Assembly (NCBI GenBank): GCA_964016885.1
Contig: OZ024742.1
Span: forward strand, 56,916,001-56,980,000
DNA: 64,000 nucleotides
DNA from: Eledone cirrhosa
Lineage: Eukaryota
Direction of reading: 5' to 3'
Under the pieces are notes generated by a model, which was not told the DNA's origin, did no database searches, and worked only from the letters and a program-made list of their open reading frames with translations. Positions within the stretch are counted from its first letter, which is position 1; every line of letters begins with the position of its first letter. This document shows positions 5,639-24,307 of this stretch, in pieces. The translations under genes and the position numbers were made by a program.

Positions 5639-5849
5639 ATATTATTATTGCTGTTTTAGGAGAAGCAGCCGTACTAAAGTGGAAGTTGCGTATTTATATT
5701 AACAGTTTAATTCAAGTCCTCACTACCAGCAGTTTCAATACGGAAAGACGTCTAAATCATCAGGAGCATTTGAGAAATGTACCTAATGATTCCGTCGGAA
5801 AACTGCTGGTAGTGAGGGGCTGAGTCAAAATGTTATGTGTGTATGTAAG

Positions 5850-6130
5850 TCTAAAGTCTGTCTTAAGCCAGAAGGCTCATTTGGCCGGTGCTTATCCCGG
5901 TTTCATGGCGTGAAGCGACTGAGAGTACACGACTCTCCATGGACAAGGCGCTAATCCATTGCAGTGTTAAACCCCCAGCTATTGCTGGTATTCATTTTCA
6001 ACTAGAGCAGCGTGAAATGAAGTGTTTTGCTCAAGAAACCCAGGAATCAAATCTACGTAACCCAGGAATCAAATCCACGTAACCCAGGAATCAAATCTAC
6101 GACATTATGATCGTAAACCCGACACCTCTA
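5850..6130 (-). mobile_element. tRNA-derived SINE, family S2 (V/CORE-like centre), with an internal 22-bp triplication
   Basis: Minus strand TTCTTGAGCAAAACACTTCATTTCACGCTGCTCTAG. Related copies at ~42010-42152 and ~58860-59750. CCCAGGAATCAAATCYACGTAA x3 at ~6039-6100. Confidence 0.6.
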
Positions 6131-6189
6131 TGTATGCGTATATATATATATATATATATATATATATATATATATATATATATATATAA

Positions 6190-6795
6190 ATGGTGGCTGC
6201 CAACTCGTTTTCGAGTACGGCCACTACTTTATATCCATGTAGGAGAACCCCTACCGATGCGCTGAACGAGTGTGACTTTTTAATCCACCCAGCGACTTGA
6301 AAACTCTGGTACAAACACTACACTTGTGACAATTATTGTCACATAGTGCTGGGCCCATGGTAGCATGCGATGACAAGGGCAGAGAGATCTCCAGATATAA
6401 AGCAATGCCTGTGCCGTGAAGCTTTTATAGTGAGCAAAGGCACTGCACAAAGCCAGTCCCACTCTCTTAACCAAGATGATATTTACCAAAAAGAAGAACA
6501 AGTCAACATCATTGGATACCATCAGGGTTGCAGGTGTTATATCAGAGTTTTCCTTCTCCTAGAATTCTGCCTTGACAAAGGCTAAGGGGTCATCTCTCCC
6601 GGTGATTTTGGATGGCCATTGACTCTCAAGAGCTCCTTTGCCCTTTGACAGGTTTTGTTTTTAGTCCTGCAGGATGTCCAAAGTCACCCTCCTCACCAAG
6701 AAACCTGGGGTTGCCAGTTTAGTCGCCAACGACCCAACCATGAGACAGGTTGTACTGGGATATATGTTACCAGTAGCACCAACTGGTGACCTGAC
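6190..6795 (-). mobile_element. ~600-bp non-autonomous RTE derivative (RTE 5' UTR + RTE 3' end), copy 1
   Basis: Near-identical copies at 20044, 52421, 53053 and 54884. Minus strand carries the RTE 5'-UTR motif CTAGGAGAAGGAAAACTCTGA. The 3' end encodes a C2H2 remnant ([24 protein letters not shown]), like the C-terminus of the RTE at 44546. Confidence 0.8.
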
Positions 6796-6824
6796 ATATA
6801 TATACATACACACGTACATACATA

Positions 6825-6959
6825 CATGGGGCTGCAAAAGTAGGTATACTGTAATAAAAAACGAAACATGTGCACAAACGTATTGTATTGATTATACAAA
6901 CATCAATAATAACATATCAATACTAATCCTTACTGTATACCTATTTTTGCAGCCCCTTG
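6825..6959. mobile_element. 135-bp Tc1/mariner-type MITE
   Basis: ~29-bp TIRs CATGGGGCTGCAAAAGTAGGTATACTGTA / TACTGTATACCTATTTTTGCAGCCCCTTG flanked by TA. Confidence 0.85.
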
Positions 6960-7623
6960 TATATATCAAAGGTAAAAATATAACTGTATTTGCATGCAGA
7001 GAGCTATATAGGAAAATAAATGATTACCAAATATTTTTTATACAAAGCTTTATGTGTTTATGTAGTTACAGATGGAAGATATGAAAGTTATTCTTAAGGT
7101 AAAAGTTACAGAAAGACAGACGTAAACACAAAAGAAAAGATAACATTAAGATTTTATCTCATCTGCTTTACAATTTTTTCAGCATTACTACCGATTAATA
7201 CAGAGTTAGGCAAAATTCAAGAAATTGAATAAAATTGTGTACAGCATGTATATAAAAGCAAATTAAGCAAAGAATAAAACAAAAACAAAATATGTTACGA
7301 GGTCAAGCCCTATAGGGCAAGATGCAGTCTATTGGATGTTACATTTCAATATTGTCATCAAAAGAATTTCACGCTGGAATTCTAAGTAGTTTTGTTTTTA
7401 ATCGGGAGTTATGCCAAAACAATTGTAAAATATTAAAGAGATCCGATCTTTAGTCTATCATATATATATATATATATATATATATATATATATATATATA
7501 TATATATATATATATATATATATATATATATATATATATATGTATGAATGTATATATATATATATATATATATACACACATGTGTGTGTGTGTATGTATG
7601 TGTGTGTGTATATATATATACGT

Positions 7624-8230
7624 ATGGTTGCCGAACACTGTACGGCTAATAATTCGGGCTGTTTGTTTACAAACAAACTGAGCATCATAATAAATGTTCG
7701 GTAAACCCATACGTACATATATATATATATGTGCATGTATGTATATACATACTACTGTACGTCTGTATACATATATGTATGTACGTATACATACTTACAT
7801 TTAAGTATCAGCCGTACTAAGAGTGAGAAATGAAATTTCATTTTTTCCATTTATCGTTTTCAGTGCGCCCGGCCGATTAACTCACTCCATATGCAAATTA
7901 TGCTGCTCAGCCATTAATATGCATAAGGAAAGTATATACTTTCAAACGTTCAATCAACTGACAGGAAGGTATACGGTGCTGATGACAGCTAATAAGCTAG
8001 AAACTAGTTCATTGTTCCTTTGTCAGTGTTGAACAAATAGGGCAGCGATGGTTGCCGAACACTGTACGGCTAATAATTCCGGCTGTTTGTTTACAAACAA
8101 ACCGAGCATTATAATAAATGTTCGGTAAACCCATACGTACATATATATATATATATATGTGTGCATGTATGTATTTACATACTACTGTTCGTCTGTATAC
8201 ATATATGTATGTATGTATACATACTTACAT
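7624..8230 (+). mobile_element. Hammerhead-containing non-coding element with ~180-bp terminal direct repeats (retrozyme-like, 424-nt unit)
   Basis: 7624-7800 is repeated at 8048-8230; a single hammerhead lies between the repeats; (TA)n on both sides. Confidence 0.72.
7974..8014 (+). ncRNA. Type I hammerhead ribozyme (intact core)
   Basis: cggtg CTGATGA c agct aata agct a GAAA ctag TT cattg; palindromic stem III ACTAGT; stem I extends to ~7948/8034 (ACTGACA/TGTCAGT, GTTCAA/TTGAAC). Confidence 0.82.
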
Positions 8231-8288
8231 ATATATATATATATATATATATATATATATATATATATATATATATATATATGCATAT

Positions 8289-21622: not shown

Positions 21623-21694
21623 ATATATATATATATATATATATATTATTCAAAATATTAATAAATGAAGATGTTCACATAATCAAAATATATG

Positions 21695-21757
21695 TTTTAT
21701 TATATATATTTCGGAGGTACTGAGCGGTTTTTTTCAGTACGTCCTCGTCAGATAAAA
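21695..21757 (-). ncRNA. Type I hammerhead ribozyme (intact core)
   Basis: Minus strand: ttttat CTGACGA ggacgtactga aaaaaaccgc tcagtacctcc GAAA tatata TA ataaaa. Confidence 0.82.
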
Positions 21758-22450
21758 TACATGAAATACCTCAAATGTCTTGATGGTTCAATTCCAGTAT
21801 TGGCAGTGGTTTATTACAACAAATCTCAATATTTATATACCACAAATAATAACATGATAAACTTAAATATGATGAAGAAGAGGATGTGGAGCGAGATATA
21901 AGTATAAGGAGTTGGTGAGTATGAGGTAATGCAAGAAGAAATAAATAAACTCATACATATATAAATATTTAAATGCGTAAATAAACGTGTTAGGGAAGAA
22001 AAAGAAAGAGAGAGAGAGAGATAGAAGAGAAGAAAGAAGAAGAGAGAAGAAAGAAGAGAAGAGATAAGAAGGAGAGAGAGAGATGAGAGAAGAGGAAAGA
22101 CGTAACTGCAAAAAGGAAAGAAAGAAAGAAATAAGGAAGAAAGAGACATGATGCGTTGTTTTCAAATATTAAGTCAAATAGAAGCGACCAATTAAATACC
22201 ATGAAATTTTTCATATCTTTTGTATTTGGTTATGTTTAAGCTAATTATACTAATATATTATATCAAAATTAAACAATATAAAATGTTTTCTATAATAATC
22301 AGAAGCATAGTTTAATTAATATATATATTCAAATATTTTGTTACAAAATTCAAAAACATTTTTATCTATAAAGTAAGTTTACATATCTATTAAATATATA
22401 TATATTTCGTAATTCGAACTCGGGAATTTTATATTCTCCGAGTGAAAAGA

Positions 22451-22536
22451 ACCTTCTGACGAGACTTTATCTTTTGAATGGATGCCCGTTAGGACTATCC
22501 ATTTATTTTTGAGACTCGAAACCGTTCGGTAAAGGT
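22451..22536 (+). ncRNA. Type I hammerhead ribozyme, copy A
   Basis: acctt CTGACGA [long stem II ending GAGACTC] GAAA ccgttcgg TA aaggt; predicted cleavage after 22531. Confidence 0.85.
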
Positions 22537-22929
22537 AACCATAGTAAGTACAGTGAATTTTTTGAAATTTATTTTAAAAATTTTTCTTATTTGCTAAACC
22601 TTGATGTTCTGGCTCGTTAATTTATTAACCTGACATAGAACCACATTGGCATATGGTTGGATAATACATGTATGCCTATATGTTTTTTGCGTGTAGGGAT
22701 ATATACTTTATTATTATTAATCTCACCCTGGTCGAGATAAAATTTGATCGTTTTGACTGCTGCTATTTACAGTGGTAGTTGATTAACCTCCCTGCCTCTG
22801 CATTCTATTTTTGCACACGGCACTGGACAGAATTGCTTCCACATGATTCATTCTCATCTCGGGAACAATTTTGAATAGCGCCAGTTCGTAATTCGAACTC
22901 GGGAATTTTATATTCTCCGAGTGAAAAGA

Positions 22930-23014
22930 ACCTTCTGACGAGAGTTTATCTTTCAATGGAGGCCCGCAAGTACTATCCATTTATTTTTTAGACTCGAAAC
23001 CGTTCGGTAAAGGT
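22930..23014 (+). ncRNA. Type I hammerhead ribozyme, copy B
   Basis: acctt CTGACGA gagttt...agactc GAAA ccgttcgg TA aaggt; predicted cleavage after 23009. Confidence 0.88.
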
Positions 23015-23450
23015 AACCATATTAAGTACAGTGAATCTTTTGAAATTTATTTTAAAACTTTTTCTTATTTGCTAAACCTTGATTATATATATATAAATAT
23101 ATATATATATATATATATATATATGTATGTATATATATATATATATATATATATATATATATATATATATATATATATATATATATATATATATAATATA
23201 TATATAAATATATATATATACATATATATATATATATATATATAAATATATATATATACATATATATATATATATATATATATATATATATATATATATA
23301 TATATATATATATATATATATATATATATATATATATATAAACGTTTGAATTTGTAAAGCCAAACAATGCAGGTATGGACATAGCATAAAAATGCAAATG
23401 CAAAAGATATTGTTGATAATTAGTCTTTTACCTTAGATTTATTTAAATGT

Positions 23451-23485
23451 CCTTAATTTTCGAGATAATATCTCTTCCTCGGAGG
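23451..23485 (-). ncRNA. Minimal type I hammerhead, U4C core variant
   Basis: Minus strand: cct CCGAGGA a gagat att atctc GAAA at TA agg; palindromic AATT stem III. Confidence 0.62.
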
Positions 23486-24307
23486 GAAGTAAAGCGGTTA
23501 AACCAGTGTTCTAAATAGCTTGCCAAGTCATGCTGACAGGAAATGGTATAGAGAATTCTGACTGAGGAATGTTCTCACAACTGACCAATCAGAGGAGAGG
23601 ATGTCCTTCAACACTGAAATACGTTTGTTTAAATTCATATGATTTCAGTTCCTCAATGAAACAACAACCCAACCAGGAACTGGGCATATCAGAGTATTGA
23701 CAAAGTTAAACACCTCAACAACATGTGTACTCGTCTCTACCACACTAATTCGGACTGCCTGAAGAGGTCACAACCAAAGATCGCTGTCACCTAAATATAT
23801 ATACCAGTAATAAACAAAGCCAAATTTTAAACATTTGACTTATTTATTTTATTTTATTTTTTATATATATATATATATATATATATATATCCGTGATAAT
23901 TATGTTTATATAGGAAAAAGAAGTTGAAAATGCAATTGGAGTCAGTCTTTGAGGTTTATTTACAATAATTTATAACTTTACCAGTTTCACACATTGCATG
24001 CTTTTCAAAAATTAGGAGAGATGGATAAATGTGTGTCTATTCCGACTTGTAACTCGCAACTAATTGATGTTGGGAATTTCTTCAAGTTGCCCAGATTGCT
24101 ATGTTTGAAGTACAATTTGATAGGTTGAGAAAGATCATGTGATTAGGCATCGCGTGTGTTATGGTTCTTTCAGGTTTTTCCAGAAAAGTGACTGAAGTTT
24201 AATGTATAATTTAATAGGCTGAGAGTTTGGTGGTACTTTCAGGCACTAAAACGGAAGTGTCTTGGTTTAGTGAATATGGACAGTAGTAATTCATGTCAAT
24301 GGTAGTC

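Follow-up and report, generated by a model that had tools for sequence, protein, structure and literature searches.

Background

Several of the features considered here have previously been described, i.e., hammerhead ribozymes in Penelope-like elements (PLEs), their U3-A8 variant, inverted pairs, tails, and the targeting of (TA)n arrays by Hydra and Neptune PLEs (PMC4209133, PMC8557442), and a PLE origin of retrozymes has also been published (bioRxiv 10.64898/2026.07.22.740005). Hammerhead counts in the literature stand at 120,000 for axolotl, 9,000 for Xenopus and 5,000 for mussel. For Octopus vulgaris, 31 recently active PLE families have been listed in a report that does not use the word ribozyme (PMC13282606). 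The current study concerns a 64,000-nucleotide stretch of the Eledone cirrhosa genome (GCA_964016885.1, contig OZ024742.1, positions 56,916,001 to 56,980,000; hereafter the window, in whose own numbering positions are given), and in particular the hammerhead-bearing modules at 5665-24015. A first-pass annotation, made from the sequence alone, had described this region as a hotspot of sequence-unrelated ribozyme modules, at which a crossing transcript could be cut repeatedly. The data presented below argue, with a probability that we place at roughly 0.88, that the region is an unexceptional accumulation of truncated PLE 3' ends, so-called pseudo-long terminal repeats (pLTRs), and their likely non-coding derivatives, which were likely inserted singly into (TA)n arrays.

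Hammerhead motifs in the window

A descriptor for type I hammerheads (at least 4 bp in stem I, CYGANGA, stem II, GAAA, a palindromic stem III and UH) matched the window at five sites, every one of which lies inside 5665-24015 (cores 7979+, 9524-, 16128+, 21751- and 22935+; modules are named below by the position of their core). Two sets of 100 local shuffles of the window returned means of 0.04 and 0.01 matches with a maximum of 1, far below the five observed. A looser stem I added a site at 23482-, while permitting U3-A8 added one at 24008-. The CUGANGA/GAAA/UH core stands around three helices at the five strict sites, and three further sites carry the whole core with a weak stem II. Within the 21751/9524 group (18 sequences), 93.6% of cells are paired; furthermore, stem II displays both-sided changes at five of its six basal pairs, with a covariation score that was reached by none of 500 shuffles, although the tally of doubly changed pairs alone was reached by 131 of the 500. 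The hammerhead motifs of the region are real, and far above chance.

A reading of these motifs as chance folds of AT-rich, palindrome-rich DNA can draw on the Rfam search, which returned zero hammerhead matches at gathering score and none among the matches listed (150 of 186), only TA-hairpin microRNA noise being seen, and on the finding that three of the 17 sites named in the first-pass annotation are indeed chance. However, 67 strict motifs were found in a sample of 60 evenly spaced 10-kb stretches (600 kb) of the genome, compared to 0-1 in each of ten shuffles; the stems covary and the motifs recur in high-copy families, which leaves this reading a negligible probability. ARAGORN found no tRNA.

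The other 14 of the 17 named sites are intact, decayed or partial hammerheads. All seven of those described as intact possess the CUGANGA/GAAA/UH core, but three do not satisfy the strict fold, i.e., 9999+, in which a stem II base has mutated away from the GGAC of its family, 22456+, which exhibits a G to C change within stem II, and 19082- (reported as 18952), whose stem II of 105 nt contains a mismatched base. Sites 5730-5815, 9076, 21565, 23755 and 23975 are decayed, partial or U3-A8 members of hammerhead families. The proposed U4C variants at 16128 and 23482 represent private decay, a family-wide variant being excluded by the CTGAAGA of family copies. As regards the three chance sites, the fold of 14620 is not retained in family copies, 16317 reads the tail of 16128 in antisense, and the relatives of 18394 are missing GAAA. 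The term 'sequence-unrelated' was too strong, since several sites are common to one family: 9524 and 21751 have their stem I and layout in common, 9081, 21568 and 8289 constitute a single family, as do 16128 and 21412, and 22456 and 22935 form a tandem pair.

Alternative cores and folds were also considered. G3-C8 and A3-U8 cores produced 1 match in 800 kb, no better than shuffles. For the hairpins at 9140 and 5730, HDV-like (hepatitis delta virus) and type III folds were discarded, as family copies fold as type I. U3-A8 matches numbered 16 in the 600-kb sample, eight of which belong to one minisatellite; other U3-A8 hammerheads, which represent three or more additional sequence types, were noted at L031:4062, L033:7005, L035:6129, L066:6596 and L092:795. 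At sample loci L030, L049, L058 and L076, a family was encountered in which CCGAAGA (U4C) recurs in five copies, and there the change therefore looks fixed.

Penelope-like element families

The open reading frames (ORFs) beside the motifs encode Penelope-like proteins of three types, and 27,218 or more of the 600,000 bases in the sample are PLE coding sequence. The modules with cores at 16128 and 9081 are pLTR ends of PLE families with intact frames elsewhere in the genome, where intact pLTR-ORF-pLTR and tandem copies carry the same hammerheads. Both families possess an upstream single ORF that combines a reverse transcriptase (RT) with a C-terminal nuclease, and the layout found is that of endonuclease-bearing (EN+) PLEs, i.e., a pLTR/tandem arrangement, an inverted truncated arm and a tail at one end. 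PLE ORFs were sought within 1.2 kb upstream of copies, in flanks that in most cases measured 1.5 kb.

The 16128 module (16056..16374, plus strand) is a tailed solo pLTR of a Neptune/Nematis-like PLE, with 90% identity and a predicted cut after 16162; a 31-nt tail fragment at 21412..21442 (plus strand) belongs to the same family. A PLE ORF lies upstream in nine of 20 copies, intact frames of 1167 and 1238 aa exist elsewhere in the genome, and the 116 scored genome copies exhibit identities of 95-100%. As read from the sequence, the ORF contains a CX4CxxC linker and, in its nuclease, CCHH, in keeping with the CX2-5CxxC linker and CCHH nuclease of Neptune/Nematis. The Pfam GIY-YIG model matched only a third PLE type, and neither the 16128 nor the Hydra ORFs, while tblastn (E 3e-7) and Atlas clusters tie the 16128 ORF to this GIY-YIG-matching type. 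A PDB search for telomerase likeness with one RT fragment returned no match.

The 9081 element (8289..9281, plus strand) is the 5'-truncated 3' end of a Hydra-clade PLE, and comprises an inverted arm at 8289-8315 (27 nt), a short interspersed element (SINE) at 8549-8787, a U3-A8 hammerhead and a tail reaching a TA array. Its core carries a G5A mutation, the cut would follow position 9168, and the element matches the pLTR of intact units of 3531 bp at 83% identity. The family core, TTGANAA (the U3-A8 swap), is present in 21 of the 23 cores found in the loci examined, and a PLE ORF is located upstream in 13 of 75 copies. Read against the published description, the 784-aa Hydra frame displays RWR for RWK, DKT, a CxCX5C linker, CxxC and CxH, with no CCHH; its GIY-YIG nuclease was identified from motifs. 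A young subfamily consists of repeated 784-aa frames in head-to-tail 3531-bp units, each with a U3-A8 hammerhead whose fold is predicted to have the lowest energy (probability of the closing pair 0.97) and whose cut site is positioned 190 nt before the first ATG.

Further traces of Hydra-like elements are a remnant of an endonuclease C-terminus followed by 113-bp repeats (20720..21410, minus strand; tblastn E 2e-18), in which no hammerhead was found, and the coreless 3' half of a U3-A8 Hydra hammerhead on the plus strand with an inverted tail arm on the minus strand (21494..21619).

The remaining modules

The remaining modules are either PLE ends with a weak ORF link or retrozyme-like units without an ORF. 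The former include two inverted, decayed hammerhead arms at 5691..5847 (cores CTGATGA at 5763- and CTAATGA at 5783+), whose stem I is broken here while GCAC/GTGC is intact elsewhere in the genome, and whose family has a Hydra-like ORF upstream in one of nine copies. For a two-armed insertion at 9426..9682 on the minus strand, with its core at 9524, ATGCGCAT as stem III, a cut predicted at 9470 and an inverted tail arm spanning 9590-9682, such an ORF is present upstream of two of 17 family copies, and for the module at 21647..21810 (minus strand; core 21751, stem III ATATATAT, predicted cut 21701) a PLE ORF is found in three of 20 copies, the genome containing 1659 candidates of this family, many as inverted pairs. 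An older module at 9937..10124 (plus strand; core 9999) has ACGT as stem III and a mutated stem II base. At 23340..23555 (minus strand; core 23482, stem III AATT) the core CCGAGGA has drifted from the CTGAAGA of the family, while the adjoining module at 23556..23861 (plus strand; core 23759) has lost G12 (TAAA) and is predicted to be dead.

The 7979 and 22935 families form ORF-less tandems of 424-530 bp with one type I hammerhead per monomer, as in non-LTR retrozymes. The former is represented by a partial tandem at 7624..8233 (plus strand; 424-bp period, stem III ACTAGT, predicted cut after 8009), with 3637 first-look candidates in the genome; the latter, with 1999 candidates, is represented by a tandem pair at 22406..23083 (plus strand; 479-bp period). 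The cores of this pair, the sole same-family pair in the region, lie at 22456 and 22935, and its cuts are predicted at 22531 and 23009. A module at 18751..19565 (minus strand; core 19082, stem III ACGATCGT, predicted cut 18959) is marked by its 105-nt stem II and by a SINE fragment (19090-19182, insertion 19074-19198) that sits in stem I. The 16-nt target duplication of this SINE copies stem I and the core, rebuilding 7 bp of stem I, and the motif thereby survived the insertion. Finally, a second U3-A8 family is present at 23891..24277 (minus strand), with the core TTGAAAA at 24008, ACTGGT as stem III and a weak stem II. Most copies in the window carry private core or stem mutations.

Probable insertion into (TA)n arrays

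Arrays of (TA)n lie between and flank most modules (6139..23890), making up 8.0% of the region compared to a sample mean of 5.7%, and ten of the 60 stretches are equally high. After tandem arrays had been collapsed and matches less than 400 nt from a locus end dropped, 106 matches gave 80 units, of which 75 have (TA)5 or longer downstream within 300 nt, whereas random positions in the same loci gave 32.5% (maximum 43.8% in 200 draws). The previously claimed association with (TA)n is thereby upheld. CA, GA and TAA arrays occur near nine, six and six of the 80 units, respectively, all inside the range of the nulls.

The 3' ends of copies fall at two fixed points beyond the cut in each of the six families tested, for example at +20 and about +100, +53 and +131, or +161 and +232, and inverted pairs combine one short with one long end. 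No pile-up at the cut was seen in these six families, and cleavage was consequently rejected as the event that sets insertion ends. Two fixed 3' ends past the cut, together with inverted arms, are a known PLE signature, and the short and long inverted pairs fit two-site internal priming as reported for Poseidon PAc (PMC11167929). At the end points the element sequence continues TAT or ATAT, and an overlap of 3-4 nt between end and TA array was scored at five of eight ends, compared to 10% in the null, the three misses being ends with mis-set anchors that were scored as misses.

These ends suggest the following route of insertion. The GIY-YIG nuclease of the element would nick a (TA)n array, and the RT would prime at either of two internal sites, 20-230 nt beyond the hammerhead cut, often at a match of 3-4 nt of TA between element and array. 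Reverse transcription would usually terminate early or fold back, and because the hammerhead lies near the priming sites it would be retained even by short copies. The TA left on both sides of each insertion likely offers fresh targets, from which mixed clusters would be built; that split arrays attract more insertions is suggested by motif counts that are clumped (variance/mean 3.5) and correlate with TA density (rho 0.52). Most likely, the ribozyme acts on behalf of the source element: in the young Hydra family the cut would free units of 3531 nt from tandemly arranged transcripts. The solo copies of the region are probably decaying passengers. Coreless Hydra-family hairpins are very common (e.g., 21494-21619, 35508-35656 and many other loci), and in an unbiased sample 23 of 30 of their 5' ends were located 28-48 nt before the cut, in the stem II loop and 3' strand; these hairpins would represent either an RT stop or a self-amplifying mini-element.

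Density across the genome

The genome comprises 2,995,841,428 bases, and the sample density of 1.1 strict motifs per 10 kb extrapolates to approximately 335,000 motifs (bootstrap 200,000-494,000). The four largest contigs are richer and were over-sampled (56 motifs in 400 kb compared to 11 in 200 kb elsewhere), and weighting by size brings the estimate to approximately 300,000 strict motifs, or about one per 9-10 kb. The strict motifs of window and sample, 111 in all, fall into 22 clusters, one of which merges two types. The region itself contains 2.7 strict motifs per 10 kb, and eight of the 60 sampled stretches have three or more. A further 200 kb adjoining the window yielded 39 strict motifs, and within the surrounding 264 kb, 25% of sliding 18.35-kb windows hold at least five. 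The region is dense, but clusters of its kind are common, and it is not a special hotspot as had been suggested. The view that many PLE/retrozyme families target TA was borne out in that families end in type I hammerheads against (TA)n, while the idea that this is peculiar to the locus was not: the pattern is genome-wide, and there is therefore nothing special to this locus.

A number of observations weigh against the reading of the region as an ordinary nest of PLE ends. When decayed copies are included, a homology census counts 11.4 modules per 10 kb in the region compared to 3.6, a density equalled by only two of 60 random and one of 20 neighbouring stretches; the census favours the window because its library was seeded from the window's own families, and it also caught some SINE pieces. 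The ORF links of 5763, 9999, 23482 and 23759 concern one or two copies each and could reflect neighbours present by chance. Two contig sets of unrecorded kind yielded neither an empty allele nor a usable joint, and insertion into pre-existing TA, as opposed to later growth of TA, is hence put forward as likely. Finally, no PLE ORF was found within 1.2 kb upstream in any of the 59, 18, 11 and 16 examined copies of the 7979, 22935, 19082 and 24008 families, respectively, so that their PLE origin is presumptive.

This last observation, together with sample arrays in which units of 310-556 bp lie head to tail, could also indicate that the ORF-less modules (7979, 22456/22935, 19082 and 24008) are a separate class that spreads via circular RNA and another reverse transcriptase, rather than PLE ends. 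Against this stand TA junctions that the ORF-less modules have in common with the ORF-linked families, the occurrence of several of these modules as inverted pairs, a reported match of Xenopus retrozymes to PLE pLTRs (bioRxiv 10.64898/2026.07.22.740005), and the length of the examined flanks, mostly just 1.5 kb; a separate class is hence considered rather unlikely, and derivation from PLE ends is preferred. Long head-to-tail retrozyme-like arrays were observed at sample loci L040, L091, L032 and L022, with periods of 556, 310, 470 and 466 bp, respectively.

Possible cleavage of crossing transcripts

The proposal that a transcript crossing the region would be cut repeatedly is not supported, since the short palindromic stem III requires a partner from its own family, and the palindromes differ from family to family, so that only 22456 and 22935 could form the presumed dimer. 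Moreover, the hammerhead fold is predicted to lie 1.4-17 kcal/mol above the minimum-energy fold at every site except 9081, the sole fold in the window that favours a hammerhead monomer and one whose core is mutated (G5A). Repeated cutting of read-through RNA across the region is unlikely on these predictions. A scan of 16 frames of the window revealed no host exon.

The wider notion that the cluster is a functional RNA-cutting zone, in which host or read-through RNA from either strand would be cut at several points, could appeal to the seven CUGANGA/GAAA/UH cores on both strands inside 18 kb and to the 22456/22935 pair, which could dimerise through a stem III duplex of predicted -11.2 kcal/mol. 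This pair may be active, as coral and mussel retrozymes are reported to self-cleave efficiently (PMC7229834). Nevertheless, a cutting zone is highly improbable in view of the unlike palindromes, the unfavourable predicted folds, the drift of core and stem positions among copies, and the equal density in a quarter of nearby windows. Published single minimal hammerheads were likewise inactive alone: no cleavage was seen for one from Schistosoma (PMC4209133), and the ribozyme of Poseidon PAc is reported to require protein for cleavage and to be dispensable for insertion, with no read ends at the cut (PMC11167929).

Other elements

Several other elements were observed in the window. A young 608-bp repeat, flanked by TA or TACA and without hammerhead, occurs at 6189-6796, 20044-20631, 52421-53028, 53052-53405 and 54884-55312; its copies are 89-96% identical, and its end is 75% like 35232-35426. 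A 200-bp repeat at 14494-14693 is TA-flanked with sharp ends, has 2356 first-look candidates and lacks a hammerhead. At 25394-26383 (minus strand) lies a decayed PLE endonuclease remnant of the third, Neptune-like type, with no hammerhead found beside it. A long, near-perfect fold-back hairpin at 11780-11960 adjoins a SINE and has an Rfam microRNA match below gathering score. At 48490-51915 (plus strand) an intact 1141-aa RT frame is flanked by (TAA)n, and this element we take to be likely of Dong/R4 type. A long interspersed element (LINE) at 44546-48294 (minus strand) encodes two frames, one of 995 aa (endonuclease-RT) and, after it, one of 278 aa that shows weak C2H2 zinc-finger matches.

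Comparison with known systems

The locus itself is ordinary. What is apparently new is the hammerhead density of the genome, together with a young Hydra family suited to testing the role of the ribozyme. At one hammerhead per 9-10 kb, the genome surpasses the published counts for axolotl, Xenopus and mussel, and in the literature searched no cephalopod hammerhead report or comparably high count was found, although the species-list supplements of PMC4209133 and PMC8557442 may cover this. Publications have so far left the role of PLE hammerheads open, a question on which a young, intact tandem Hydra element, whose ribozyme is predicted to fold alone, bears. The genome allows two tests, i.e., whether a monomer-type PLE hammerhead sets an RNA 5' end, and whether there is selection against sense-strand intronic copies. 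A doubtful, though wider, proposition would unite these points: that this is the densest hammerhead load described (approximately 300,000, from at least 20 TA-targeting PLE families), that a still-active Hydra family has a U3-A8 ribozyme working as a monomer, that thousands of intronic copies cut nascent host RNA often enough to affect gene output and to produce a strand bias, and that the TA-targeting families prime by short TA pairing, in contrast to the only PLE whose biochemistry has been studied.

Compared to the PLE pLTR hammerheads described previously (PMC4209133), those of E. cirrhosa have in common the type I fold, the palindromic stem III, the extra base before stem II and the U3-A8 variant, reported there in Schistosoma Cercyon, and they are also mostly solo, occur as inverted pairs 100-700 bp apart and derive from many families per genome. 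They differ in number, with approximately 300,000 strict motifs estimated here compared to 2,000-9,000 there, and in stem III, which is often longer here (4-19 nt), one family having a predicted monomer fold. With the Hydra clade (PMC8557442) the elements share RWR for RWK, DKT, the CxCX5C linker, CxxC and CxH, a C-terminal nuclease, a hammerhead, (TA)n targets and an inverted arm plus tail, while the unit is 3531 bp rather than generally below 3 kb (a figure given as a tendency), tails are 60-110 nt rather than the 30-40 described, and copy number is very high, with many intact frames.

Non-LTR retrozymes (PMC7229834; bioRxiv 10.64898/2026.07.22.740005) resemble the units of 310-556 bp found here in that they lack an ORF, lie head to tail and carry a single type I hammerhead apiece, although the units found here are placed in (TA)n arrays and are known from DNA alone. 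Poseidon PAc of Anolis (PMC11167929) is similar in its two internal reverse-transcription starts, its short end and tailed end, its hammerhead near the ORF start and its insertion ends away from the cut site; however, PAc primes without target homology, whereas five of eight ends in E. cirrhosa overlap the TA array by 3-4 nt.

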